Shown: positions 7,654-63,106 of the stretch, piece after piece
Numbering within the stretch: the stretch's first letter is position 1
Layout of the letters: each line of letters begins with the position of its first letter
Assembly: GCA_964513995.1 (NCBI GenBank)
Contig: CAZEOQ010000007.1
Span: 6,891 to 70,890, forward strand
Source: an uncultured Desulfobacterales bacterium
Lineage (GTDB): Bacteria; Desulfobacterota; DSM-4660; Desulfatiglandales; JALVZP01
Reading direction: 5' to 3'
Length of the DNA: 64,000 bases
Position numbers and translations under genes: made by a program
The notes under the pieces: generated by a model
Seen by the model: the letters and a program-made list of their open reading frames with translations, nothing else
Told to the model about the DNA's origin: nothing
The model's database searches: none

Positions 7654-10600
7654 CTTCACTCCATTTTTCCTGATATGAAATAAGACTTTCTTCTGGATAT
7701 TCCATAAATTCCTCTTCTTTTATGTAATTTCTTGCCTCATATGCCTTCCTTAATACTTCCTGATAATCAAGGTTTCCTTCTTCAATCATATCCATTGCTT
7801 CTTCAAGCTGTCTTGTAAGTGATTCATCAATATATCTTGGAAAATTCTGCTTCAGATACTTATATACTTCTCTTCCAAGTCTTGTAGGATAAAGTCTTCC
7901 ATTTGGAAGCACCTTTATGTAATTTCTATTTATAAGTGTTGTAACGATTTCTGCATAAGTAGAAGGTCTTCCAAGTCCTCTTTTTTTCATCTCCTGAACA
8001 AGTGTCCCTTCTGTATAAAGATCTGCTTTTGGAACTAATCTAAATGAAACATTTTCAACTTTTATTTCTTCTGATATAGAAGCTACAGAAAAAGTAGGAA
8101 AGACCTTCTCAAATCCTTCTTCTAAAATTTCAAAAATTGCTTCATCTTCCCAGCTGTATGAAGGAGTTTCAAACCTTAGTCTTTTTACTTTCAGTTTTGT
8201 CTGTCTCATCTGACTTGCTATAAATCTTCTAAATATAAGATCATACAGTCTTACTGAAATATTAGGATCTGAAAGACTTATAAAACCTGCTCCTATCATA
8301 AACCTTACCTGAGATTCATCTTGAGGTCTTGTAGGACGGATTCCTTCATGTGCTCCTTCTTCTGCCCATTCTCTTGGATAAAATAGCTCTTCACCGAACT
8401 TATCAGCAATATATCTTTTTGCTACCTGATATCTTCCAACCTCTGATATTCTTGTTGAATCTGTCCTGTGATAAGTAATAAGTCCTGATTCAAATAATTC
8501 TTGTAGAAGCTTCATTGTTTGATTTGTAGAAAGACCAAGCCTTTGACTTGCATCCTGAAGTATAGTATCTGTGGTATATGGTGGAGGAGGAATTTTTATC
8601 TGTTCTTTTTCTTCAATAAAAGATACAGAAAGCTTTCCCTGTTTTATTTCTTGAAAAAGATTTTTTGCTAAAGCAGTATCTTCAAGTTCAACTGAAAACA
8701 GGTATTTCCATAGCCTAAAACTTATTTTAGCCTTTTTCTTTTTTGCCTCTTCTGCCCTTTCAATTACCCATCCAAGAACAGGAGTTTGAACTCTTCCTGC
8801 AGAAAGCCTCGTTTTTTTAAATTCCTTCCATAGCCTCTGTGAAAGAGTAAAACCGACCCATCTGTCAACTACTCTTCTTGCAAGCTGAGCTTTTACTCTG
8901 TTTAAGTTAAATCTTACAGGATTCTTTAAAGCTTCTCTAAATGCACGAGGAGTAACTTCGTGAAATTCAAGTCTGTTTATGTTTTTATTAAAAGGAGAAA
9001 GCTGTATAAAAAGATCATAAGCTATCTTTTCTCCTTCTGCATCTGGATCACTTCCAATGAATACTTCCTTTATTTCATAAGCAAGTCTTTGAAAGCTTTT
9101 TATAAGATCCTGTTTGTCAAAAATAGGTCCTTTTTCTTTTTTCTGTTCAACTTCTTCTGGATCTACAAGCTGCTGTCCAGTTGATTTCACTATCTTTATG
9201 GTATCAAATACTGGGATAAAATAAGAATCTTCCTTAAATACTCCAAAAAATCCCTTCTTTCTTGAAAGATTAAACACATGACCTAAGGATGCCGTTATCA
9301 TGAGAATCCTGTCCTCAGTTGGTATTTCATACACAAAAGCATCTCCTACTTTTCTTACAGTTGGCTTTCCAAAGAAGGAAGCAATGGTCCTTGCTTTATT
9401 AGGAGATTCTACTATTACCAGAGCAGTAGAAATCTGGTTTGAGACATCTATTTTTCTTTCCTTTCTGATCCTTGTAAGTTCTTCTGATATAGCCGAAAGA
9501 TCTATCTCTGAGATGTGTCTAAAAGAAAATTCTTCACCCAGATGCAATTTGAGTCTTTTTGTAAGGCTTTTTAAAGATCTTTTGTCTTCAGGAATTACTA
9601 TAGAAAGACCTTTAAGAAGACCTGAAGCTGTAAGTCTTGAAACCCTTCCAGATGCCTGAAGATATGTAGCAGAATCTCCTACTACAAGATAAATCTCTCC
9701 ATCCTGTCTTATAAGAAACACATCTTCTGAATTTTCAAGTCTTTCAATAAATTCCTTTTCCTTGAACTTCTTCTCTATGAATTCCTTTATCTTTTCGCAC
9801 TTCTGTTTTATTCTTGGATACCTTTCAAGGTCTTCTTCTTTTAAGTTCAAATACTTCTTCAGATACTGAATATCTTGAAATCTCCTTATCCTTTCCTCAT
9901 CTTCCAAGATAGAGATAACATTGACAAGTATATTGTAAAGACTTCTTGGAACTGCTGAAACCTTAGTAGGAAAAACATGTTTTGGCACTCCTAAAAATAT
10001 TGCATAACGAAGGACATAAGGAAGATCTATTCCCCTGACGAGAGGATTTCCTATGTGAGAAAGACCTACTGCTATGTCAAATTCACCTCTTTTCATTTCT
10101 TCCATAAGGGTTTCAGGATCAAGTTCCAGATAACTCAATACCTTAAATCCTTCCTTTCTCAAATTCTTTACAACTTCTTCTACCCCATTTTTTCCAAATA
10201 TAGATGAGACAAATAAAAGCCCACCCTTTCCAAGGATCTTTAAAAGAGAAGCTATTCTTTTACATGCTTTATCAATTTCAGGATATGTTTCGTCTGTTAT
10301 ATCTATTACATTTCTGAGATTTGAAACAGCTTGATAGATGTCAAAACCAAGTAAAAATCTAAAAAGCATTACTCTGTTTCCACGAGGTTTAAGTGTTGCA
10401 GATGAAAGAAGGAGGATCTTTTTTCCAGAATGTCTTTTTCTTATTTCCTCAAGTTTTTCAAAGTCTTCTTCTTTCTTATCATGTTTCAAAGCAAGGGCTA
10501 TTTCTTCTTCTGAAAAACCTAAAAGTTTAAAAAGTGAGTCAATGTGTGAAGATCTTTTAAGGAAGGAGTCAACATCGTCAATGAAGATAAAGCTGAAGTT

Positions 10601-50469: not shown

Positions 50470-50690
50470 TTTCTTTCTGCTACATATACTCCATCCCAAT
50501 CTTTTGGAGGAGGTTCATCAAGATATCTCTTACATCTTTCTATAAACAAATCTGCTACTCTGTCATTATATTCCTCTTTTAGTATAAGAAAATAGCTTAG
50601 AGCTTTTTTGAATTCCCTATTTCTGTAAAGATAAAGAGCCTTGTGAAAAAGGTTTAATGCTTCTTCTTCCATCTTTTCTGTAACAAGCTC
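50466..50690 (-). pseudogene. Out-of-frame C-terminal (TPR-like) part of the CHASE2 adenylate cyclase
   Basis: ELVTEKMEEEALNLFHKALYLYRNREFKKA...RCKRYLDEPPPKDWDGVY is the typical tail of CHASE2 class III cyclases and joins the upstream ORF if one TA unit is restored. Confidence 0.75.
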
Positions 50691-52575
50691 ATATAGTCAC
50701 AGGCAACTCTTTTCCTTTTACCCTTATTCTGTCAAGCTCTCTAAATCTGAAACTATTATCCTTTATCATCTCTTTTGTATATTCACTTACTATGATATGT
50801 GTTCCATACTGTTTGTTCAGTGATTCAAGTCTTGATGCAAGATTTACTGTATCTCCTATTGCAGTATAGTCAAATCTTATATCTGTTCCCATATTACCTA
50901 CAATTGCATCTCCTGTATTTATCCCTATTCCTATGTCTATCTCAGGAAATCCAAGTTCTTTAAACTGTCTGTTTACTTCTTTAAGAGCTGATATCATCTC
51001 AACAGCACTCTTGCATGCAAGATATGCATGTTCTTCAACATCAACTGGTGCATTATATATTGCCATTATTGCATCACCTATGTATTTATCAAGTGTTCCT
51101 TTGTTTGAAAAAACTATATTTGTCATTGGATCCAGGTATCTGTTTAGCATCTTTACGATTGTTTCTGGTGGATATTTTTCTGAAAGACTCGTAAATCCTC
51201 TTATATCTGAAAAAAGAACTGTTATTTTTCTCTTTTCTCCTCCAAGTTTTAACATATCTGGATTTTTTACGATCTGTGAAACAAGTTCAGGTGAGACATA
51301 ACTGGAAAAAGCCTTTTCAAGAAATCTTCTCTTTTTTACTTCCACAAGATTCCTATAAGCCTCACATCCTGTATATGAAAGAAAAAGTGAGATGCAGGGA
51401 TAAATAAATCCAAGGTTTAATCCAAAACGAGAAAAAAGCCAGATATTCAGTAATCCGTATATTCCGAAAATTGCTAAGAAGAAAAATACAGAAATCAAAG
51501 CGTTCTTTATAAGAGAAAGAAAGACGAAAAGGATAAGGGGAAAGATGATTATAAAGATCACTTCAAGAGCAATAACTCTTCCATCTCTTATGAGGAATCT
51601 TTCTTGAATTATGTTTGAAAGGACAGTAGCATGAATAAATACTCCTGGAAAAGCAGGATCTATGGGTGTTGCTCTCATGTCATATATCCCTACTTCTGTT
51701 GCACCAACAAATACTATTTTGTCCTTCAAAGCCTTTTTTGGAACTTTTCTTTCTATTATGTCAACAGCAGAAAATACAGAAAACTGATCTCTGCTATAGT
51801 AATTTATGACAGCTCTTCCAAGTTCATCTACCTTTATTTTCTTTTTTCCTATAAGGATAGAGTCAATTCCATATTCTGCTATGGATATAACTGGCTCAGA
51901 AGAAAGAAATTCCTCTGCTGCAGAAAGTGAAAGTGATGGATAAAATCCTCCTTCATATAATGCTATAAGATTATAGTTTCTGCATATTCCATCTTTGTCA
52001 GGGAATATATTAAAAAAACCAAGATTTTTTGCACTTTTAGATATTTCAGGAATGTTTAGCTCAACAAAAGGAAATTCTGGAACAGGAATATCCTTTACCT
52101 TTCCAATAAATTTTATAAGTCCTATCTGTGTTTCTTTTAGCTTTCTTAGTGAATCAGGATGTGAGTTTTCTCTGTTATACCTGAAAAAATATCCAAGTAT
52201 AACATTTCCTGCTTTTCTTATAGATTCTGCTAAAAGTTGGTCAGACATAGGATCTGATTTTTCAGAAAAGACAATATCAAATACTATCTCTTTTACCTTA
52301 TAGTATCCTGAAAGACTGTCTATAAGGCTTGCCAAGATCTTTCTTGACCATGGCCATCTCCCTATCTTATTTATACTTTTCTGATCAATTGCAACAATTG
52401 CTATTCTTCTGTCAGGTTCAGCTCCTTTTCTAAGTCTAAACCTTACATCTGTTATCTTAAGATCAATTCCTTTTATCAGTTCTGGATCAATTCTGTATAA
52501 AAAAACAGTAGCAGCTGATGAGATAAGACAGATAAGGAGAAAAATAATTTTTGTTTCTTTCCATTTTCTTTTCAT
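50689..52575 (-). CDS. CHASE2-domain class III adenylate cyclase, prematurely terminated by a frameshift
   Basis: CHASE2 (IGRWPWSR, FDIVFSE, DKDG, PGVFIHA), TM helices, cyclase motifs FSDIRGFT, DKYIGDAIM, DYTAIGDTVNLASRLE, VKGK; K and D specificity residues indicate ATP as substrate. Confidence 0.9.
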   Translation of the reverse strand: MKRKWKETKIIFLLICLISSAATVFLYRIDPELIKGIDLKITDVRFRLRKGAEPDRRIAIVAIDQKSINKIGRWPWSRKILASLIDSLSGYYKVKEIVFDIVFSEKSDPMSDQLLAESIRKAGNVILGYFFRYNRENSHPDSLRKLKETQIGLIKFIGKVKDIPVPEFPFVELNIPEISKSAKNLGFFNIFPDKDGICRNYNLIALYEGGFYPSLSLSAAEEFLSSEPVISIAEYGIDSILIGKKKIKVDELGRAVINYYSRDQFSVFSAVDIIERKVPKKALKDKIVFVGATEVGIYDMRATPIDPAFPGVFIHATVLSNIIQERFLIRDGRVIALEVIFIIIFPLILFVFLSLIKNALISVFFFLAIFGIYGLLNIWLFSRFGLNLGFIYPCISLFLSYTGCEAYRNLVEVKKRRFLEKAFSSYVSPELVSQIVKNPDMLKLGGEKRKITVLFSDIRGFTSLSEKYPPETIVKMLNRYLDPMTNIVFSNKGTLDKYIGDAIMAIYNAPVDVEEHAYLACKSAVEMISALKEVNRQFKELGFPEIDIGIGINTGDAIVGNMGTDIRFDYTAIGDTVNLASRLESLNKQYGTHIIVSEYTKEMIKDNSFRFRELDRIRVKGKELPVTI

Positions 52576-53203: not shown

Positions 53204-53850
53204 GCTGCTGTCTTATACTGATATTACTTTTTAATTCCCTTTGTTTTGCAAAGATTTCTGCAATTCCTGAAGAAGCAGATATAGGAACTCTTATAGAAGG
53301 AAAAACAAAAGAAGTTGTATTTTTTTTAAAGAACTATGGAAAAAAGCCTGTTACTGTTGAAAACGTAATACCTGATTGTGATTGCACTTCTGTTATTTCA
53401 TATACAGCGAGGATAAGCCCAAAAGAAGAAGGAAAGGTAATAGTAAAAATAGATACAGCTGGTCTCAGTGGAAAGATCAGAAAAAAGATCCTTGTAATAA
53501 CAGATGATCCAGAAAGCTCAGAGATTCCTCTTTTTATAACAGGAAAAGTCATATCTCCAATAGATGTAACTCCTAAAAGGGTTTATCTTGTTGGAAAAAA
53601 GGATTCTCTTATAAAGGCAGAAGTAGAGATAAAAGGGAATTTTAGAAAGCTAAAAATAGAGCCAGCTTCTTCACTTGATATAAGGTCAATAAGGTTTTAT
53701 GTAAAAAAGGTAAATGAAAAGGAATACAGGATAAAGTTTTTAAAATTCCCTTCAGATGATGAATCGTATACAGGAACTTTAAAACTTAAAACAAACTATC
53801 CTGAAAAACCTTATATAATCATTCCCATAATCGGCATATTTTTTGACTAA
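53200..53850 (+). CDS. Exported DUF1573-like (Ig-fold) protein
   Basis: Signal-peptide-like N-terminus, F.LKNYG..PV, PDCDCT, TDDP motifs. Confidence 0.75.
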   Translation: MSCCLILILLFNSLCFAKISAIPEEADIGTLIEGKTKEVVFFLKNYGKKPVTVENVIPDCDCTSVISYTARISPKEEGKVIVKIDTAGLSGKIRKKILVITDDPESSEIPLFITGKVISPIDVTPKRVYLVGKKDSLIKAEVEIKGNFRKLKIEPASSLDIRSIRFYVKKVNEKEYRIKFLKFPSDDESYTGTLKLKTNYPEKPYIIIPIIGIFFD

Positions 53851-54674
53851 GCCTTCTTCCCTCTTACTATAACCCTTTCTTCTTCTGGAATAGGTGGTGG
53901 AACAGGTTCTCCAATGATCTTTCTTACTGCTTTGAACTTAGGTGGACATACCTCATAACATGTTCCACACTTTATACACTTTTCCTGATCAATCACATGT
54001 ATCTTATTCTTTTCACCAGTTATTGCACCTGCTGGACAGCGTCTTCTACATGTTCCACATGCCTGACATTTTTCAGGATCAATATAGTATGAAGGAACTT
54101 CTGTAAGGAGCTTTTCTATCTCTTCCTTTGTATAAAAATCCTTGTATTCCTCAATGCTTCCAAGGCGTTTCATAAGCTTTTCTCTTTTTGTTACCTTTAT
54201 GTAAGGAACAAGCTTTATTATTTCCTCAAGTCTTTTACTTATCTCTTCTTTGCTTATTCCTTCACTTCCAAGAGGACCTATCTGTCTTAGCTTTTCTGTA
54301 AAATCTCTTACTACTTCAGCAAAACGACCACCTTCAGCAGATGACATAAATTCTATCCTGAGTCTATCAGGATTTATTCCTACATATTCAAGAATCCTTT
54401 TACATAGATGAACCATATTCAGTGCAAAATAGTTTCCTTCTGTCACATAATTGCATTCTCCGAGTCTGCATCCTCCAACAAGAACACCATCTATTCCTTT
54501 GGAAAATGCCCTGAATATAAATGTCATATCAACTCTTCCACTGCACATAATACGGATTATCCTTATTTCTGGTGGATACTCCAACCTGGAGACCCCAGCA
54601 AGATCTGCTGCACCATATGCTCACCAGTAACAAAGGAATCCAATTATCCTTGGCTTAAAAGTAGTCTTTGCCAT
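53847..54674 (-). CDS. bamF: BamF: selenocysteine MvhD-like [2Fe-2S] subunit of class II benzoyl-CoA reductase with C-terminal 2x[4Fe-4S] domain (275 aa, Sec18)
   Basis: ATG 54674 after AAGGAGG reads MAKTTFKPRIIGFLCYW-UGA-AYGAADLAGVSRLEYPPE, in frame with ORF 53847-54584 (CSGRVD, GCRLGECNY); UGA at 54623-54621 is at the second Cys position of the MvhD CxxC. Confidence 0.9.
54596..54610 (-). promoter_or_regulatory. Candidate bacterial SECIS hairpin of bamF
   Basis: CAGCA-GATCT-TGCTG starting 10 nt after the in-frame UGA. Confidence 0.6.
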
Positions 54675-54685
54675 CCCTTTCCTCC

Positions 54686-57600
54686 TTAAGTTTCTGAAAG
54701 AAGTGCATCAATCTGACAAAGGATCTGTTCGTTCTTAAAGTGGTTCAGAGAAATTGCACCAGTTGGACATACTGAATTGCAAAGTCCATCTCCTTTACAT
54801 AGAACAGGATTTACTTTTGCCTTATTTTTCTTTATCTCTATAGCTCCATACTTGCAAAAAGAAGCACATATTCCACATCCCATACATCTCTTTTCATCTA
54901 CCTGTGCAACAGCACCAGGTGCTATTGCAACATCATGTGAAAGAAGCATGCTGCATCTTCCTGCTGCACCATATGCCTGGCTTATGGTTTCATTTATGTG
55001 CTTAGGATAGTGAGCAGTTCCACAAAGAAAGATTCCGTCTGTTGCAAAGTCAACTGGTCTAAGCTTTACATGTGCTTCCTTAAAGAATCCATCTACATCA
55101 AGAGGAACTTTATATAGCTGAGCAAGCCTTTTTGCATCTTCTCTTGGAACAACAGCAGCTGCAAGGCTGAGTATATCAGCATCTATTGCTATCCTTTGTC
55201 CAAGGATAGGATCAGTTACTGTTACCCTAAGCCTTCCTTCTACTTTTTCCACCTCAGGAACATTTTCTGGTGGCTCATATCTTATAAACCTTACTCCCAT
55301 GTCTGATGCCTTCCTATAGTAATCTTCTCTGAATCCATATGTCCTCATGTCTCTGAAAAGTATATATATCTCAGCTTGTGGATTTATCTCCTTTAGCTTA
55401 ATTGCATTCTTTATTGCATGTGAACAGCATACCCTGCTACAGTAATTTCTTTCTTCATTCCTTGATCCAACACACTGTATCATTACAACTGATCTTGCAT
55501 TCTGAATCCTTTCATCCTTTTTTGCTATAAGTTCTTCAAGTTCAAGATGCGTAAATACCCTTTCATCTTCTCCATAAAGGTATTCCTTTGGCTTGTATTC
55601 TTCTGCTCCTGTTGCAATTATCGTTGCTCCATGACGTATGATCCTTACAACATTTCCTGTCTCTACAGTAGTTATGAAGTTTCCAATGTATCCTGAAGCA
55701 TCCTTGATTTTTGCTTCAGTAAAGACATGGATGAGTGGATGTGCATATACCTTTTCTATAAGACCTTTCAGATAGCTTTGAACATCCTGACCATCTATCG
55801 TAAAATAAAGTCTTTTTGCAATTCCTCCAAGCTCTTTTTCTTTTTCTACAAGATATACCTCAAATCCCTGATTTGCCAGACTTAATGCAGATGTCATTCC
55901 AGCAACTCCACCACCTATGACAAGTATCCTTTTATCAAGAGGAATCTCTATCTCTTTCAGAGGCTCAAGACGGGCTGCTCTTGCAACAGCCATCCTTATA
56001 AGATCCTTTACCTTCCTTGTTGCCTCTTCCCTTTCCTTAGAATGAGCCCATGTGCAGTGTTCTCTTATGTTTACCATCTCAAGATAATACTGATTCAGAC
56101 CAGCTTCCTTCATCGTCTCACGAAATGTTGGTTCAAGATTTCTTGGAGTGCATGCAGCAATAACAACCCTGTTCAGTTTATGTTCGTGAATTGCATCAAT
56201 TATCTCTTTTATGTAGTTTGATGCACATGAAAATACCTGATTTGTTGCATATACGACATTTGGAAGTGTCTTTGCATATTCTGCCATCTCAACAGTATTT
56301 ATAACTCCTGCAATGTTGCTTCCACAATGACATACAAATACACCAATCCTTGGCTCTTCCTTTGATACATCCATTTCTTCTGGATATACCTTCTCTTTTG
56401 CAAGTAGTCCGCGACGATGAGAAAGAAGCTCTCCACATTTTGAACTCACACCACTTGCAGAAAATACAGACTCAGGAATGTCTACAGGACCCTGAAATGC
56501 ACCACTTACAAATATTCCCGGACGAGATGTCTGAAGTGGATCAAATGGACTTACTTTGCAGAATCCGTGTTCATTCAGCTCTATTCCAAACTTTTCTGCA
56601 AGCTCTTTTGCCTCAGAAGGTGGTCTAAGTCCTACAGAAAGAACGACAAGATCAAACTTCTCTTCTTTTACTCCTTCATCAGGCGTAGAATACCTTATGA
56701 TAACATTTCTTTCACTGTCTTCTCCAGCAACTGTCACATAGCTTCTTATGAACTTTACCTTATCAAGCTGTGCAGCCCTTTGATAATACCTTTCAAAGTC
56801 CTTTCCATATGCCCTTATGTCATTGTGAAAGATCCAGATCTCTGTATCTGGATCATGTTCTTTTGTAATAAGGACTTGCTTCTGTGTATATGTGCAACAT
56901 ACTGATGAGCAATAACTGCTGTATCCTTCAATTACCCTTCTTGATCCAACACACTGAATCCATGCAATCTTTTTTGGATGTTTCATATCTGATGGTCTTC
57001 TTATCTCACCACCATATGGTCCTGTTGCACTTGTTATTCTTTCAAAGTCAAGGCTTGTTACAACATTTGGATATATTCCATATCCAAAGTCGTTTCTTAT
57101 GGAAGGATCAAATATCTCAAATCCTGGACTGAGGACTATTGCTCCTACCTTCAGATTTATCTCTTCTGGCTTCTGACTGAAGTCTATTGCCTGATTTGGA
57201 CATACTGCAAGACATATTCCACATTTGTTTTCTTTAAGATAAAGGCAGTCCTTTTCTGTTACATAGCTTATAAGTGGAACTGCCAAGGAGAAGTAAATGT
57301 GGATTGCTTTACTGAATGAGAGATTCTGGTTGTATGGATCAGGAACAAGAACAGGGCAGTTTTCCTGACATGTCGTGCATCCTGTGCACTTTCCTTCAAG
57401 GACATATCTTGGTCTTTTTATAAGCCTTACCCTGAAATCTCCTACCTCTCCTTCTACTTTCTCAACCTCTGCATCTGTTATGATCTCTATATTTGGGTGC
57501 CGGCCGGCCTCGACCAGCTTTGGAGCAAGTATTCAGACAGAACATTCGTTTGTAGGAAAGGTCTTATCAAGCTGACCCATATGTCCGCCAATTGTAGGGA

Positions 57601-57745
57601 GCTTTTCTACAAGGTATACCTTGAATCCAGATGAAGCAAGATCAAGTGCTGCCTGTATTCCACTTACTCCTCCGCCAACAACCATCACATCAGCAAAATT
57701 TATTCCTTCTCTAAGTCTTAATAGCCTCTCTATTAAGGCTTCCAT
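54686..57745 (-). CDS. bamE: BamE: HdrA-like FAD/FeS subunit with an in-frame selenocysteine (1019 aa, Sec71)
   Basis: ORF 57533-57745 (VVGGGVSG...[12 protein letters not shown]) continues through UGA 57535-57533 as [16 protein letters not shown]...[11 protein letters not shown] with no further stop into ORF 54686-57286; two HdrA FAD modules ([31 protein letters not shown]). Confidence 0.9.
57503..57518 (-). promoter_or_regulatory. Candidate bacterial SECIS hairpin of bamE
   Basis: GCTGGT-CGAG-GCCGGC starting 14 nt after UGA; a conspicuous GC-rich patch (codons GCC GGC CGG) in otherwise AT-rich DNA. Confidence 0.6.
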
Positions 57746-57757
57746 TTTCTCATCTCC

Positions 57758-58924
57758 TTAGATAATTTCTTTTATTATCTCAGTTACATCCTTTATTTCT
57801 ATAAATCCCTCACCATATTTTTCTTCAAGTGTCTTTCTGCTGTCCTCAAGCATTGTAATACAGTATGGACAGAATGTTGCTATGACCTCTGCTCCAACCT
57901 GAACAGCCTGCTCTATCCTTATGTCAGAAAACCTTTCTCCTTTCCTCGTCTCCATCCATACCCTTCCTCCTCCACCTCCACAGCAAAGACTGTTTTCTCT
58001 TGATTCTGGAAGTTCAACAAACTCAATTCCTGGAATCATCTTGAGAATCTCTCTTGGTTCATCAAATATTCCGTTATGTCTTCCAAGATAGCATGGATCG
58101 TGATATGTAACCTTCTTTTTGTATTCCTTCTGTATCTTTATTCTTCCTTCTTTTAAAAGCCTTAAAAGCAGTTGTGACATGTGTATTACTTCAAAATTTA
58201 CGCTGAATTCTGGATATTCATTCTTAAATGTATGATAACAGTGAGGAGAGCTTACAATGATCTTTTTTACGCCACTGTCAATAAATGTCTTTATGTTTTC
58301 TTTTGCAAGCTTTCTGAAAAGCTCCTCATCTCCAGTCTTCCTTATACTTTCTCCACAGCAGTTTTCCTTTTCTCCAAGTATCCCAAAACTTACTCCTGCT
58401 TTATTTAGGATCTCAACTGTTGCCCTTGCTATTTTCTTTCCTCTTGGATCATAACACGGATAGCAGCACGGAAAATAAAGATATTCTGTCTGTTCTGTAA
58501 ATTCATTTACAGGAAGACCTTCAGCCCATTTTTTCCTTTCACTCCTTTTTTCACCAAGAGGATTTCCTTCAGCAACAAGACTTCCACTTGCTGTTTTTAC
58601 TGGCTGAACAGGCTCAGGAAATATTCCATATTCTGTAGCAACACTTCTAAGAAGCTTTACGACCTCTATCTGATTTACCTGTCTCGGACACTGAATCGTG
58701 CATCTTCCACAAGTTGTGCACCTCCATATATCTTCACTTTCAACCTCTGTAAGTCCAAATGTTGCCTGTCTTATTATCTTCCTCATACTGAACTGGATCA
58801 CCTTGTTCCATGGACATACAGAATCACAAAGACCACACTGAAAACATAGTCTAAAAGGTTCACCACCTTTTTCCCTAATAAGATCTACTATTTCCTTATA
58901 TTCTTCAAGTATTATAGCTTCCAC
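57758..58924 (-). CDS. bamD: BamD: HdrC/HdrD-like Fe-S protein with CCG domains
   Basis: CFQCGLCDSVCP, CTTCGRCTIQCP, ENCCG, YHDPCYLGRHN, CCGGGGG, CPYC; lies between bamC and bamE. Confidence 0.87.
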   Translation of the reverse strand: MEAIILEEYKEIVDLIREKGGEPFRLCFQCGLCDSVCPWNKVIQFSMRKIIRQATFGLTEVESEDIWRCTTCGRCTIQCPRQVNQIEVVKLLRSVATEYGIFPEPVQPVKTASGSLVAEGNPLGEKRSERKKWAEGLPVNEFTEQTEYLYFPCCYPCYDPRGKKIARATVEILNKAGVSFGILGEKENCCGESIRKTGDEELFRKLAKENIKTFIDSGVKKIIVSSPHCYHTFKNEYPEFSVNFEVIHMSQLLLRLLKEGRIKIQKEYKKKVTYHDPCYLGRHNGIFDEPREILKMIPGIEFVELPESRENSLCCGGGGGRVWMETRKGERFSDIRIEQAVQVGAEVIATFCPYCITMLEDSRKTLEEKYGEGFIEIKDVTEIIKEII

Positions 58925-58936
58925 CTTTCCCTCTCC

Positions 58937-59512
58937 TTATTTTCTAATTTCTTGTGCTTTCTTTGCTGTTGCCATCTGTATCACCATATCCACGACTTTG
59001 TCAAAACCAAATCTGTCTGCAAGTGCATTAAGTCCTACCTCAAGTTCATTCTCCTTTGGAGGCTCTTCTTCTACTTCCTCTTCCCTTTCTTCATATGTAA
59101 GTGCATCTACAAGACAGACCTGAACACACCAGGGTTCTTCAAGAGGGGGCTCATTCTCACATACATCACACTTTAAAGGAAGTCCTGAATCTGGATCCTT
59201 AAAAAGGTCTCTTGCAGGACATGCTGCACCACAGAAGCTACATACCACATAATCCTTTCCATATACACTCTGCATCTCTCCGTTTGCTATGTATATGCTC
59301 CTTCCTTCACATTCTGCCTTTGTATAAAATGTTGCACGAACAGGAACAAATACATTTCTCTGATCATCCCTAAATACCCTTATACGAGACTTTGAAGGAT
59401 TTACACTGCTGTATTTTGGATTTGCATGGAATGCAGAGCATGCAACCTCACATGCTCTACACCCCATGCATTTGTCAAGATCCATCTTTATTATCTTTAT
59501 CTTCCTTTTCAT
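58937..59512 (-). CDS. bamC: BamC: [4Fe-4S] ferredoxin-like subunit
   Basis: CMGCRACEVACSAFHANPKYSSVNP.KSRI...CSFCGAACP.RDLFKDPDSGLPLKCDVC...CVQVC; ATGA overlap with bamB. Confidence 0.9.
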   Translation of the reverse strand: MKRKIKIIKMDLDKCMGCRACEVACSAFHANPKYSSVNPSKSRIRVFRDDQRNVFVPVRATFYTKAECEGRSIYIANGEMQSVYGKDYVVCSFCGAACPARDLFKDPDSGLPLKCDVCENEPPLEEPWCVQVCLVDALTYEEREEEVEEEPPKENELEVGLNALADRFGFDKVVDMVIQMATAKKAQEIRK

Positions 59513-61497
59513 GACTTCTCTCCTTGTGCTTGATCTTCTTTCAGAATACCTCTTTTTACAAAGTCCTCATATACATATCCCAGATTTAGCTTCTCAAGTG
59601 TCTCTTTTGTAGGAATTCCATCCTTGTTCCATCCTCTGTATTTGTAATACTCATCCATAAGCTTTTCTTCATATTCAGGAAATCTCTTCTTCCAGTGATC
59701 TTCTGGTGGTTTGTCATCCTTCCTTCTCAGACCTCTTCTTACATTTATACACCTTACGAGATTCCTTACCCTTGTTGCTATTGTCCAAAGCTTGTCTTCA
59801 TCCATCTTAAGTCCTGATGCAGCTTCTATTATAAGTGGAAGATTGTGGATGTGATATGGTGGTTTGAGTGGGAATGAGGAAAGTCCTGCACAGATTCCAG
59901 TGCAGTCGTCAATATAGTGCATGATCTCCTGCCATTCTACAAGCTCACATACAAGGTCTGGTGGAGGATAATATGGGAATGTATAGCCTTCATCTCCCCA
60001 TTTCAGTATAAATTCCTTAAATCTTTCTTCCTTTCCAGTAGGAATCTGTATCCAGTCCTTTACAAATTCCTCTCTTATCTTTTTTGGAAGAGGTGCCTGT
60101 GGGATCTGTCCTTCAATCTGTGTTATGTTTATCTTTTCTCCTGTTGCCCACATAAGGAAGTAGATTGGATTTAGCATTCCAAGTTTTATTGGAACCTGCT
60201 CATGCTTCTTTATAGTATTGTGATCAAACTTTTCTGCTCCTCTTCCAATCTCTCTTGCTGCCCAGTATACTCCTTTTGCGAGAACATCTCCTATCCCTTC
60301 TCTTTTTACAACCTTTTCAAGAAGATAAATGAATCTTTCTTTGTTGTCTTTTGGAAAGTTTGGAAGATCTTTGTCAGTAAGGATTCCATTTTCATAAAGC
60401 TCTATTGCAAATGCAAGGACCTGTGGTGTCGTAAATCCATCAAGTCCGTAGTGCTGTGCAAGACCTGCACACTTAAGTCCAAACTCAAGATCATCAACCA
60501 TTGCAGCCATTGTATATGTAAGCTTTGTAAAGCATTTCATTACATATACAGGAACACCTGGAAGCTCAAGTATTGCAGAACATGCAACAGGACAGTTATA
60601 ACAGGCTATAAGGCGTTTTCTTGCATTCTCAAGTGTTCTCGTCCACTTTTCTTCTATCTCCTTTGTCCAGAATCCTTTCCTCCTTATCCTTGCATTTCCC
60701 CATGCAAAGCTTTCTGTATGCCATTTTTCATCGTGAAGTCTCATCTCCTGAGGTGATCCAATGTATGCAAGGATTCCTGGAATTCCTGGAAGAGGATTCT
60801 TGAGACGGTAGTCTATAAATTTCAGGACCTCTTTGTTAAGTTCCATAAGCCTTTCACCATCAGCAACATTCACATCCCTTGTTCCACGAACAGCTATTGC
60901 CTTAAGGTTCTTGTCTCCCATAATAGCGCCAAGACCAAGTCTGCTTGCACTGCTTTTTGAGCTTTCAATAGACGCAAAATAGACCCTGTTTTCTCCAGCA
61001 AGACCTATTGCAAGAACCTGTGCATCTGGCTGATTCAGCTCCTGCTGTATAGCTCTTATTGTCTCATATGTGCTTTTTCCTTTAAGGTGTGTTGCATCAC
61101 GTATCTCTACCTTGTCATCATGTATCCAGAGATAGACGAGCTTTGGTGCTTTTCCACGAATAATTATCTTATCATATCCAGCATGCTTTAGCTCTGGCGC
61201 CCAGAATCCTCCCATCATAGAGAATCCCATAAGGAGTGTCTGTGGGGAGATGGAAGAGATAATAGTTCTGTTTGCTCCTATGACTGGTGTTCCGCAAAGA
61301 AGACCTGCACTAAATATAAGAACATTATCTTCAGAAAATGGCTCTACTTCAGGAGGAACTCTGTCCCAAAGTATCTTTGCATTTGTTCCAAGTCCGCCAA
61401 GATAAAGTTCTGTATCCTGTGGATCTGTAGGGACTTTTTCAATGTTTCCTGTAGAAAGATCTATCTCTAAATTATATCCTGTCTCTGCGTATCTCAT
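59509..61497 (-). CDS. bamB: BamB: tungstopterin catalytic subunit of class II benzoyl-CoA reductase (AOR family)
   Basis: MRYAETGYNLEIDL...TELYLGGLGTNAKILWDRVPPEVEPFS; BamB-type motifs GSPQEMRLHDEKWHTE, CYNCPVAC, MKCFTKL (W-ligating Cys), TQIEGQ, GLSSFPLKPPYHIHN match my recollection of Geobacter BamB. Start ATG 61497 after GAGGTGG. Confidence 0.92.
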   Translation of the reverse strand: MRYAETGYNLEIDLSTGNIEKVPTDPQDTELYLGGLGTNAKILWDRVPPEVEPFSEDNVLIFSAGLLCGTPVIGANRTIISSISPQTLLMGFSMMGGFWAPELKHAGYDKIIIRGKAPKLVYLWIHDDKVEIRDATHLKGKSTYETIRAIQQELNQPDAQVLAIGLAGENRVYFASIESSKSSASRLGLGAIMGDKNLKAIAVRGTRDVNVADGERLMELNKEVLKFIDYRLKNPLPGIPGILAYIGSPQEMRLHDEKWHTESFAWGNARIRRKGFWTKEIEEKWTRTLENARKRLIACYNCPVACSAILELPGVPVYVMKCFTKLTYTMAAMVDDLEFGLKCAGLAQHYGLDGFTTPQVLAFAIELYENGILTDKDLPNFPKDNKERFIYLLEKVVKREGIGDVLAKGVYWAAREIGRGAEKFDHNTIKKHEQVPIKLGMLNPIYFLMWATGEKINITQIEGQIPQAPLPKKIREEFVKDWIQIPTGKEERFKEFILKWGDEGYTFPYYPPPDLVCELVEWQEIMHYIDDCTGICAGLSSFPLKPPYHIHNLPLIIEAASGLKMDEDKLWTIATRVRNLVRCINVRRGLRRKDDKPPEDHWKKRFPEYEEKLMDEYYKYRGWNKDGIPTKETLEKLNLGYVYEDFVKRGILKEDQAQGEKS

Positions 61498-61523
61498 AAC
61501 TCCACCTCTCTCAAAATAGTTCA

Positions 61524-61557
61524 ATGTTATATAAATCAAACATCTTTTTTCTGTCAA
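61524..61557 (-). promoter_or_regulatory. Candidate sigma70 promoter of bamB
   Basis: TTGACA (61557-61552), 18 nt, TATATA (61533-61528); short inverted repeat ATGTT-N10-AACAT (61524-61543) overlaps the -10. Confidence 0.5.
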
Positions 61558-61994
61558 GAAAGTCTTTTTTCAAGGTTTATAAAATCACTCCTGTCAAAGC
61601 CAACTGTTTTGAAAAATGAAAGAATATCAACTGAATCCCATCTTACTGATGTATAAAGAAACTTTATCCCTTTTTCTTTACATATCTCAAAAAGCACACT
61701 TGCAAGACTTCTTCCTATTCCCTGCCCCATATATCTCGGATCTACTCCAAAATTTGCAATCCATGCACCCCTGTCAACTCCAAATCCACCATATATGATG
61801 TAGCTTATCATATATCCGACTATCTTCCCGTTCAGCTCAGCAACGAGAGCAATAATATCAGAAGAGTCCTTTATTACATTGCTGAAGTCTGTTTTTATCC
61901 TGTGCTTAGTTATAGCCTGTTCAATCCTTTCAATCTCTTTTATGTCTTCCTTTTTGGCTTCTCTTATAGAAATCTTCTTCTTTAACTCTTCCAT
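61554..61994 (-). CDS. GNAT family acyl-CoA-binding protein
   Basis: IREAKKED, LVAELNGKIVGY, motif A FGVDPRYMGQGIGRSL, FFKTVGF. Confidence 0.9.
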   Translation of the reverse strand: MEELKKKISIREAKKEDIKEIERIEQAITKHRIKTDFSNVIKDSSDIIALVAELNGKIVGYMISYIIYGGFGVDRGAWIANFGVDPRYMGQGIGRSLASVLFEICKEKGIKFLYTSVRWDSVDILSFFKTVGFDRSDFINLEKRLS

Positions 61995-62180
61995 CTAATC
62001 TATCCTGATTATCTTTACTCTGTGTCCTATCCAGTCAGGAGGAAGATATACACGACCACTGTTTCCACTCTGTTTTACGACTTTTTCCACCATCTCCTCT
62101 CCATATACCTCAAACTTTACCTTTTCTCTGGATTTATTCTCTGTCTTTTTCTCTCCTTTTAGAGACTTTTTTCTTGGCAT
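61995..62180 (-). CDS. DUF2080-like small protein (probable AbrB/MazE-type swapped-hairpin DNA binder)
   Basis: FEVYGEEMVEKVVKQSGNSGRVYLPPDWIGHRVKIIR; its stop directly abuts the GNAT ATG. Confidence 0.8.
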   Translation of the reverse strand: MPRKKSLKGEKKTENKSREKVKFEVYGEEMVEKVVKQSGNSGRVYLPPDWIGHRVKIIRID

Positions 62181-62194
62181 ACAGCTTTTTCCAA

Positions 62195-62236
62195 AATTTT
62201 TAGCTAAAAATTAGCTACAAAATAACTACATGTCAA
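62195..62236 (-). promoter_or_regulatory. Sigma70 promoter of the DUF2080-GNAT pair with phased repeats
   Basis: TTGACA (62236-62231), 17 nt, TAATTT (62213-62208); TA(G/A)CTA repeats at 62201, 62212 and 62223; perfect palindrome AATTTTTAGCTAAAAATT at 62195-62212. Confidence 0.65.
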
Positions 62237-62464: not shown

Positions 62465-63106
62465 ATGATCTACAAAGTAGCTCTTCTCATAGATTGGGAT
62501 AACATTAGATACAGAATTTTTAAAAACAGAAACCTTTTGAGAAAAGACACTCCAAGGTTTTCGTATTTTAAACATACAACCAAATTACCAGCCTTTTTTC
62601 TTAATTTTTTGGAGGAAGAAGAAAGACCTTACCGAATCTTTTTTTATCTTTCAGAAGGATACAGGGGTAAAGTAAAAGATCCAGAAGGGAAAGAGAGAGA
62701 TTTTTCTGAAACAGAAGAAGCTAGAGCAATGGGAAAGTTTATAAATACTCTTTCCATACTGGATCTGGTTGCAATAAGAAAGGGAAGGACAGCGTTTAGA
62801 GGATGGAAGCATGAAAATGGAAAATATGTTCCTATATTTGTCCAGAAAAAGGTGGATATTCTTTTAGCACTAGATATAGCTCATCTAACTTACAATAAGC
62901 TTGTGGATCGTATTCTGATCTTTAGTTATGATACAGACCTGCAACCTGCTCTTAAAACAGCACGAATTGGTGGAATTCAAGTCATTCTTCCTTTTTTTAA
63001 AGAAATGAAATGGGAAGATATTCCTTTGGAATTAAAAGCTCATTGTGATTTTATCAGAATAAAAAGTTATCACGAGATATGTTGTAAATTACTAAAGAAT
63101 GAGTAA
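62465..63106 (+). CDS. NYN (LabA/DUF88-like PIN-fold) ribonuclease
   Basis: Acidic catalytic motifs LLIDWDN, QKKVDILLALD and SYDTDL intact; L.AHCDF tail. Confidence 0.88.
   Translation: MIYKVALLIDWDNIRYRIFKNRNLLRKDTPRFSYFKHTTKLPAFFLNFLEEEERPYRIFFYLSEGYRGKVKDPEGKERDFSETEEARAMGKFINTLSILDLVAIRKGRTAFRGWKHENGKYVPIFVQKKVDILLALDIAHLTYNKLVDRILIFSYDTDLQPALKTARIGGIQVILPFFKEMKWEDIPLELKAHCDFIRIKSYHEICCKLLKNE

Follow-up and report, generated by a model that had tools for sequence, protein, structure and literature searches.

A DUF2080-GNAT gene pair as a candidate repressor module of benzoyl-CoA genes in Desulfatiglandales-type bacteria

What does a small, basic protein do directly in front of an acetyltransferase-like gene at the head of a benzoyl-CoA reductase cluster? 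We address this question for a stretch of 64,000 nucleotides (the window) from an uncultured Desulfobacterales bacterium (GenBank assembly GCA_964513995.1, contig CAZEOQ010000007.1, positions 6,891 to 70,890), in which a gene for a DUF2080-family protein and a gene for a GNAT-fold protein precede bamBCDEF. Sulfate reducers, syntrophs and hydrocarbon-seep communities break down aromatic pollutants without oxygen, and the key enzyme for this is class II (ATP-independent, tungsten/selenium) benzoyl-CoA reductase. A first-pass annotation had read the pair as a two-protein switch, with a GNAT that senses benzoyl-CoA or acylates a partner and a small protein that binds DNA. Overall, this interpretation is partly supported by our analysis, which extends it by a candidate operator and regulon. 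We consider it probable that the pair is a vertically inherited, autoregulated repressor module of the benzoyl-CoA regulon in Desulfatiglandales-type bacteria and several other Desulfobacterota lineages. The entire pathway of aromatic degradation in a large group of sulfate-reducing-type bacteria seems to be turned on and off by this pair, a switch not described before.

The elements in question are the following:

62231..62236, minus strand: -35 hexamer TTGACA of the DUF2080-GNAT promoter (direct reading; in register with the hexamers in most orthologous loci)
62201..62228, minus strand: operator-like element of three hexamers in 11-bp phase (TAGTTA at 62228-62223, TAGCTA at 62217-62212, TAGCTA at 62206-62201)
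61995..62180, minus strand: DUF2080-family small basic protein, 61 amino acids (open reading frame [ORF] and profile matches)
61554..61994, minus strand: GNAT-fold protein, 146 amino acids, candidate acyl-CoA-responsive partner (profile, model and fold search)
61552..61557, minus strand: TTGACA overlapping the GNAT stop, a possible internal or vestigial bamB -35 (direct reading)

How constant is the pairing? The TAG of the DUF2080 gene (61997-61995) abuts the GNAT ATG (61994-61992) without a gap. The coupling of a 61 amino acid basic protein to the GNAT by TAG ATG, as first annotated, is thus borne out by the ORF coordinates, by a pI of 9.9 and by the presence of the quoted string KVVKQSGNSGRVYLP. 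To follow the pair through the order, we took the best 80 of 295 loci from a GNAT alignment search (L numbers below), a set that includes strain NaphS2, Desulfatiglandaceae metagenome-assembled genomes, Ca. Desulfacyla and the Olavius symbiont Delta 1. This set overlaps with the genomes counted below (G numbers) and the members are mutually related; the counts are descriptive. In strain NaphS2 the pair is on record ADZZ01000517.1 (L078). All 80 loci have a DUF2080 gene immediately before the GNAT gene, as do 19 of 20 loci of an initial set and 19 of 20 loci from other families of the phylum, where the order pair, then bamBCDEF, is found 13 times in 20. In most of the 80 loci the two genes stand close together; L108, with a gap of approximately 449 nucleotides, is an exception. 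The pair is single-copy in its own 1.74-Mb genome, and 22 of 29 carrier relatives have one DUF2080 match. Identity drops with taxonomic distance, from approximately 60% within the family to 50-57% within the order and 40-53% in other families.

Bam genes lie within 10 kb of the pair in 49 of the 71 decidable order-level loci. The 80 loci are arranged as follows:

pair and bamB co-directional, pair first: 35 of 80
pair convergent on the bamF end: 8 of 80
pair convergent on bamCB: 1 of 80
pair divergent from bamB: 2 of 80
bam genes elsewhere within 10 kb of the pair: 3 of 80
pair followed by two BcrAD/BadFG-type ATPase genes: 8 of 80
none of these arrangements: 14 of 80
undecidable, flank too short: 9 of 80

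Four same-family relatives of the window show the convergent arrangement, so that the head-of-operon position in the window is one of several. In the eight ATPase loci (L092, L096, L099, L106, L113, L118, L124, L143) there is no adjacent BcrB/C gene; the ATPase context of the pair is also seen in L042, L045, L050, L055 and L060. Three departures from the simple pair are of interest. Solo DUF2080 genes occur directly upstream of bamB (G029:C3:4873-4974 and G033:C73:5719-5820), L172 carries the whole pair in two tandem copies, and L129 has an extra DUF2080 gene 3' of bamF (+8580).

Does the pair follow the bam genes across genomes? Co-occurrence had been proposed as a check on the first reading, and the outcome is strongly positive. 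Among 40 relatives in the order, 28 have GNAT orthologues (49-62% identity): 25 carry GNAT and BamB, three GNAT only (one of these with a BamB fragment at a contig end), five BamB only and seven neither. In a sample of the phylum (one draw of 300 genomes), 37 are GNAT-positive and 91 BamB-positive; 35 have both, two GNAT only, 56 BamB only and 207 neither. BamB is therefore present in 35 of 37 genomes with the GNAT compared to 56 of 263 without it, and in 25 of those 37 the two genes are no more than approximately 10 kb apart. Carriers of the pair nearly always have BamB as well, yet only approximately 40% of the BamB carriers sampled in the phylum have the pair; for these it provides a candidate regulator.

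A second line of evidence is the sequence in front of the pair. The -35 hexamer is followed, after a 17-nucleotide spacer, by a weak -10, TAATTT (62213-62208), and the three operator-like hexamers span the spacer, the -10 and the start region of this promoter. A consensus promoter scan called neither this promoter nor the TTGACA at the GNAT stop. In most orthologous loci the same layout recurs: TTGACA, then three TAGYTA hexamers (Y, C or T) at 11-bp spacing, in the promoter spacer and over the -10. By a strict two-hexamer or a relaxed three-hexamer test, 65 of 96 loci have the element in the 400 nucleotides that precede the DUF2080 core, compared to approximately 3% of random 450-nucleotide windows (59 of 2,000 strict, 51 of 2,000 relaxed). 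It is kept in other families at different G+C content, at times shifted to just downstream of TATAAT. In the 1.74-Mb genome itself, the three hexamer words occur 470 times, while 11-bp doubles occur four times against 0.13 expected and triples twice against 3e-5 expected (expectations computed from hexamer frequencies). One triple is the pair promoter, which is also the top match genome-wide to a position weight matrix (PWM), with 28.7 bits. The only other triple (C4:13834-13861) lies in the promoter region of an operon of a short-chain dehydrogenase/reductase (SDR) gene with had, dch and oah, and this site is kept in three same-family genomes. The had gene of the operon passes the cut-off of TIGR03201 (477 bits).

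Of the genes in this operon (G000:C4:10139-13801), had alone reaches its NCBIfam cut-off. The dch-like gene scores 197 bits against a cut-off of 292 and the oah-like gene 139 bits against 464; both are divergent, and ring cleavage may therefore not proceed by the textbook enzymes. At the end of the operon lies a 99 amino acid ORF:

G000:C4:9733-10029 (L005:741-1037), minus strand: 99 amino acid ORF of the same genome, sub-threshold MazE/AbrB match

We considered this ORF as the operator-binding factor (Pfam MazE, E-value 0.005, sub-threshold) and rejected it because none of 40 relatives has a homologue.

With up to one mismatch allowed, the triple pattern gives 97 strand-matches in 31 of 41 genomes of the order, compared to four for a reversed-pattern control. 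In the phylum sample, 24 of the 37 genomes with the GNAT have it, compared to 8 of the 263 without the GNAT, and of the 56 that carry BamB only, a single one does; the reversed control pattern is found in 24 of 301 genomes. In 18 of the 24 motif-bearing GNAT-positive genomes a site lies outside the locus of the pair, which means that the association is not merely one between the pair and its own promoter. Six genomes of 95-98% completeness without DUF2080 (G009, G011, G020, G021, G023, G032) have no site, though four of them carry BamB, and three well-assembled genomes without DUF2080 (G007, G024, G027) have one single-mismatch site each. The TAGYTA motif tracks the pair, not BamB.

What lies next to these sites? 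We scanned 53 proteins flanking 20 site regions against Pfam. Operons with SDR, zinc-dependent dehydrogenase (Zn-ADH) and enoyl-CoA hydratase genes are found beside sites in five further genomes from five families. Other neighbours are AMP-binding CoA ligases with a thiamine pyrophosphate (TPP) enzyme, genes of branched-chain-type ATP-binding cassette (ABC) transporters with a ligase, an electron transfer flavoprotein (ETF) gene, a thiolase-like gene, fusion proteins of a flavin adenine dinucleotide (FAD) oxidase and CCG domains with HGD-D (BcrB/C-like) subunits, and carboxyltransferases of the glutaconyl-CoA-decarboxylase type. In G014 and G017, whose pair sits on another contig, the neighbour is bamB itself. 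With a PWM built from pair promoters only, 20 of 50 cases show a strong site (at least 10 bits) in front of bamB (GNAT-bamB intervals, or the region upstream of an unlinked bamB), compared to 15 of 500 control windows, and the scores are bimodal. A bamB without its own site lies 80-240 nucleotides behind the GNAT, and the bamB of the window likewise has none. The result is a defined operator sequence and a predicted regulon comprising the reductase, CoA ligases, uptake genes, the lower pathway and glutaconyl-CoA decarboxylase-type genes, and the TAGYTA motif could be used to find aromatic-degradation genes in metagenomes. The ATPase context of some pairs, with the same operator at HGD-D genes elsewhere, hints that an ATP-dependent aryl-CoA reductase may be under the same control.

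In the window, then, which promoter would serve bamB? The GNAT stop had been described as overlapping a putative bamB -35. The TTGACA is indeed there (61557-61552, with the stop TGA at 61556-61554 inside it), but no operator accompanies it; the operator lies upstream of the small gene, within the segment 62190-62240. For bamB the most probable start is an ATG (61497), 56 nucleotides after the GNAT stop and with GAGGTGGAG in front of it, because homologues align from residue 17-21 or so of a longer ORF that begins with TTG. No terminator-like site was found between the pair and bamB in the window, and bamBCDEF is likely co-transcribed from the operator-bearing pair promoter.

The small protein is recognized by NCBIfam NF033496 (72.7 bits, cut-off 22) and by Pfam DUF2080 (PF09853; 26.8 bits, cut-off 21.5), and the Atlas clusters nearest to it also carry PF09853. 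It consists of a variable, Lys-rich tail of approximately 20 amino acids and a core of approximately 40 amino acids that is nearly invariant across the order. It contains 11 Lys and 5 Arg, nine of these 16 within residues 1-20. Its overall identity, variable tail included, is 57-74%, compared to approximately 55-66% for the GNAT; the stronger conservation of the core parallels that of the TAGYTA motif. The earlier label "AbrB/MazE-like" holds at the level of motif resemblance and is unsubstantiated by profile: the Pfam MazE_antitoxin match has an E-value of 0.068 and 13.6 bits, below the cut-off of 24.7. A complex prediction for the two proteins scored 0.00, which is no answer and counts neither for nor against their interaction. 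Among 4,276 homologues the public names are "putative transposon-encoded protein," "transposase-associated protein" and "cytoplasmic protein." Such names do not fit the constant genomic context of the small protein in these bacteria, and for this DUF2080 subfamily the database label "transposase-associated protein" is misleading.

The GNAT matches PF00583 (E-value 1.5e-13; 51.4 bits, cut-off 20.7) and has 1,252 homologues in a large protein collection. Its predicted structure (predicted local distance difference test [pLDDT] 81) is matched by Foldseek with probability 1.00 to many GNAT structures, and the nearest folds of the model are small N-acetyltransferases such as AAC(3)-I, Ard1, RimI and Naa50. 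The pyrophosphate-binding loop of GNATs reads Q/R-x-x-G-x-G/A, and a Tyr in helix 4 is the general acid in many of them, though not in all. The observation that our GNAT keeps the CoA-binding motif and has FF in place of FY extends to the 26 orthologues compared. The loop QGIG(R/K)xLA is invariant or nearly so in 26 of 26 orthologues, with QGIG itself invariant. The motif SFFK (S126-F127-F128-K129) is also invariant in all 26, so that the Tyr is replaced by an invariant Phe throughout. With the loop kept and Phe at the catalytic position, the protein may have weak enzymatic activity or may serve purely to sense a ligand. Just 3' of bamF there is often a second GNAT paralogue, solo and 28-35% identical to the first (L044, L049, L074, L087, L090, L094, L097, L098, L114); in the genome of the window such a paralogue lies on another contig (G000:C8:70661-71095).

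How might the two proteins work? The pairing, the bam linkage, the motif and the motif distribution are observed; from them we infer which protein binds the motif, whether it represses or activates, and what the GNAT does. Most simply, the TAGYTA motif would be recognized by a trans-acting factor that the pair itself encodes, with the small, basic, highly conserved protein as its DNA-binding part. Oligomers of this protein would bind the three hexamers, which are one helical turn apart. In target promoters these hexamers lie over the -10 and over the spacer between it and the -35, a position that implies repression and, at the pair's own promoter, autoregulation. In the genome of the window the targets would be the pair promoter and the SDR-had-dch-oah operon, and the pair promoter would probably drive bamBCDEF as well. 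The GNAT, with its CoA-thioester-binding fold, would be the signal-sensing partner, and repression would be lifted when aryl-CoA or acetyl-CoA accumulates, by acylation of the Lys-rich partner or by ligand-controlled binding and release of that partner. By analogy, both kinds of logic have precedents, in BadL/BadM and in the acetylation of TacA by TacT. It is tempting to go further and to picture a domesticated TA (toxin-antitoxin)-like master switch, in which the GNAT reads the aryl-CoA/acetyl-CoA pool and acylates, possibly benzoylates, lysines of the repressor tail or core, thereby releasing DNA-bound DUF2080 from a multi-operon regulon. This fuller picture is possible but less likely than not. 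If true, bacterial catabolic control would include an acylation switch of a histone-like kind, and class II benzoyl-CoA reductase would have its first regulator outside Geobacter.

Several observations weigh against the repressor module. For the small protein, hhalign against 15 local MazE/AbrB domains gives a probability of 3.6% over 12 columns, the monomer model is all-beta with a pLDDT of 56 and is too poor for a fold search, and a profile search of PDB sequences returns a chance-level match only (E-value 1.2). Transferase activity of the GNAT is uncertain, as the usual Tyr is missing. The motif fails both tests at 31 of 96 pair promoters, its strict form is missing in 13 of the 37 GNAT-positive genomes of the phylum sample, and it occurs with no detected pair in G012, G022 and G037 of the order and in G210 and G268 of the phylum, several of which are only 61-90% complete. 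The TTGACA in front of the window's bamB lacks operator hexamers, while same-family relatives keep TTGACA and phased hexamers at their bamB promoters. The pair is kept away from bam genes in 14 of the 71 decidable order loci and in five of six genomes of one family (f23). Because the counted genomes are related, the two-by-two tables overstate independence. In the benzene-degrading culture of the ORM2 study, a homologous pair beside bamQ was undetected in the proteome and was judged by the authors to be uninvolved (PMC13101534, as far as its text covers the pair).

Could the pair be a regulated member of the benzoyl-CoA regulon, with some other transcription factor binding the TAGYTA repeats? 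The GNAT would then be an enzyme that makes an acetylated inducer, detoxifies aminoaromatics or acetylates lysines of CoA ligases or Bam subunits, and the small protein its adaptor or inhibitor. The motif stands before many catabolic operons as well as before the pair, as it would for any regulon member; no DNA-binding fold was obtained for DUF2080 by model, PDB profile search or hhalign; and the solo GNAT paralogue often follows bamF. BadL, in the account available to us, also works enzymatically and not by DNA binding (PMC6191541). A separate factor, however, would need the phyletic pattern of the pair, since the motif is at background (1 of 56) in BamB genomes that lack it. No classical regulator family recurs among approximately 110 neighbouring proteins scanned, none of 40 relatives has a homologue of the other small MazE-like ORF, next to the genome's own had operon, and in G029 and G033 a DUF2080 gene on its own immediately precedes bamB. 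We regard a separate factor as rather unlikely.

Copy number, synteny, a divergence that follows taxonomy and operators outside the locus speak against two further readings, an ordinary TA system and a transposon passenger. An ordinary type II system would consist of a tRNA-acetylating GNAT toxin and an autoregulating DUF2080 antitoxin that sit at bam loci by chance. The gene order and the abutting stop and start are typical of TA pairs, the operator covers the pair's own promoter, two tandem copies occur in L172, and PMC10440598 describes DUF2080 as a domain with validated antitoxin function against nuclease toxins. Against this, the pair is single-copy and syntenic, with identity falling with taxonomic distance, and is not patchy, mobile or multi-copy; BamB is present in 35 of 37 carrier genomes; and catabolic promoters at other places in the genome carry this operator too. 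Nor is the GNAT close to known toxins. Its PDB sequence matches at E-value 0.001 or lower include no GNAT toxin, and in the Foldseek ranking AtaT comes only 50th (TMq 0.56), after many housekeeping GNATs. Y144F marks the "mutant toxin" entry of AtaT (6gtr, by its title), and the matching position in our GNAT is Phe by motif reading, without a residue alignment. In PADLOC the GNAT has only a weak generic match (PDC-M11A, 3e-5) and the small protein matches no family. We therefore consider an ordinary TA system improbable, and it is in the catabolic sense that the proposed TA-like architecture is supported, by the co-occurrence and the shared operator-like motif. The notion of a transposon accessory gene pair comes from the name "DUF2080 family transposase-associated protein," with such family names in NCBIfam, Pfam and JGI and the same label in the ORM2 paper (PMC13101534, in the passage on the pair). 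No transposase family was found among the scanned neighbours in the window or in related loci, where the constant neighbour is the GNAT; the position is stable over more than 100 species-level genomes; and no repeats flank the pair. This origin is very improbable.

How does the proposed repressor module compare with known systems? BadM is an Rrf2-type repressor. In Rhodopseudomonas palustris, the GNAT BadL controls the class I reductase genes (badDEFGAB) via BadM, by making acetamidobenzoate effectors, according to the account in PMC6191541. The likeness is a small GNAT encoded with benzoyl-CoA reductase genes and needed for derepression in R. palustris, with a repressor on the reductase promoter (PMC6191541, same account); it is one of role and gene context. 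In contrast, BadM is a separate repressor of another family, whereas here a 61 amino acid DUF2080 protein abuts the GNAT, the reductase is of class II (Bam) and the operator consists of three phased TAGYTA hexamers. No BadM-type gene was noticed beside the pair, although no search was aimed at BadM.

TacAT, AtaRT and KacAT are type II TA systems made of a GNAT and an antitoxin, and in TacAT the toxin acetylates the antitoxin. They share with our pair a small upstream partner gene, a tightly coupled downstream GNAT and an operator over their own promoter. They differ in that the partner here is DUF2080, not a ribbon-helix-helix (RHH)/DUF1778 protein, the GNAT is not close to the toxins, and the pair is single-copy and syntenic, with carriers almost all BamB-positive and an operator that recurs at catabolic promoters. 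The repressor BzdR responds to benzoyl-CoA. It is named with BadM, BamVW and BgeR among the described regulators of anaerobic benzoate genes in PMC6678401, which, in the part bearing on them, speaks of "only a few" and names BamVW and BgeR for Geobacter alone. BzdR, BgeR and BamVW resemble our pair in their pathway-specific control of benzoyl-CoA pathway operons, but they are single-polypeptide repressors or a two-component system from unrelated families, in Azoarcus and Geobacter, and none is a DUF2080/GNAT pair. In the literature we found no regulator of these types described for Desulfatiglandales-type bacteria.

DUF2080 itself has been met in other settings. The NetFlax antitoxin D146 carries it as an experimentally validated antitoxin domain (PMC10440598, in its description of D146), and it forms the C-terminal domain of the CRISPR-associated anti-sigma factor CalpT, as reported in bioRxiv 10.1101/2024.05.08.593097. 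Both belong to the same Pfam family and use it as a small partner-binding regulatory domain; their partners, however, are nuclease toxins or an extracytoplasmic function (ECF) sigma factor, with no link to a GNAT or a catabolic regulon. Our literature search found no characterisation of a DUF2080-GNAT pair or of a TAGYTA operator, and the ORM2 study (PMC13101534) is the only paper found that mentions the pair beside benzoyl-CoA genes, in the passage noted above. What is new here is the pair as a variant that combines two things already known, TA-like autoregulated pairs and acyl-CoA-linked repressors of aromatic catabolism.

The bam cluster of the window, downstream of the pair, is made up of the following genes:

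59509..61497, minus strand: bamB, tungsten aldehyde-oxidoreductase-type active-site subunit of benzoyl-CoA reductase (match to 4z3w_A)
58937..59512, minus strand: bamC-like Fe-S subunit (profile; syntenic with bamB in related loci)
57758..58924, minus strand: bamD, HdrD-like, with CCG domains (profiles, synteny)
54686..57745, minus strand: bamE, HdrA-like (profiles; one in-frame TGA read through)
53847..54674, minus strand: bamF, MvhD-like with a C-terminal 2x[4Fe-4S] ferredoxin domain (profiles; one in-frame TGA read through)

BamB matches the Geobacter metallireducens protein 4z3w_A with 1,018 bits over its full length (residues 1-653), compared to 227 bits for the aldehyde oxidoreductase (AOR) 1aor_A. 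Judged by this comparison, it is a true orthologue of the class II reductase, and the bamBCDEF cluster is genuine. One in-frame TGA each in bamE and bamF, in the contexts ...CSVU... and ...CYWU..., explains why both genes appear truncated in the ORF list; the two products are probably selenoproteins, with TGA read as selenocysteine. The cluster (53847-61557) has the short bamBCDEF form: no NuoE/F-like bamGHI adjoin it in the window, the rest of the genome not having been searched.

Some neighbouring genes recur around the locus. A gene for a CHASE2-adenylate/guanylate cyclase lies 1.3 kb beyond bamF (50689-52575, minus strand). In at least one relative (L043) a 612 amino acid protein with a cyclase domain (8109-9944) is convergent to the pair, and proteins of similar size occupy the place of the cyclase in L078, L107, L116 and L133 (by size only, domains unscanned). 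In most genomes of the order, genes for a transglutaminase-core protein, divergent from the pair, and a small-molecule O-methyltransferase lie 0.4-3.8 kb upstream of it (L067, L068, L070, L071, L078 and many more). In the window these two genes are not at that position, and the gene divergent from the pair encodes an NYN-domain protein (62465-63106).

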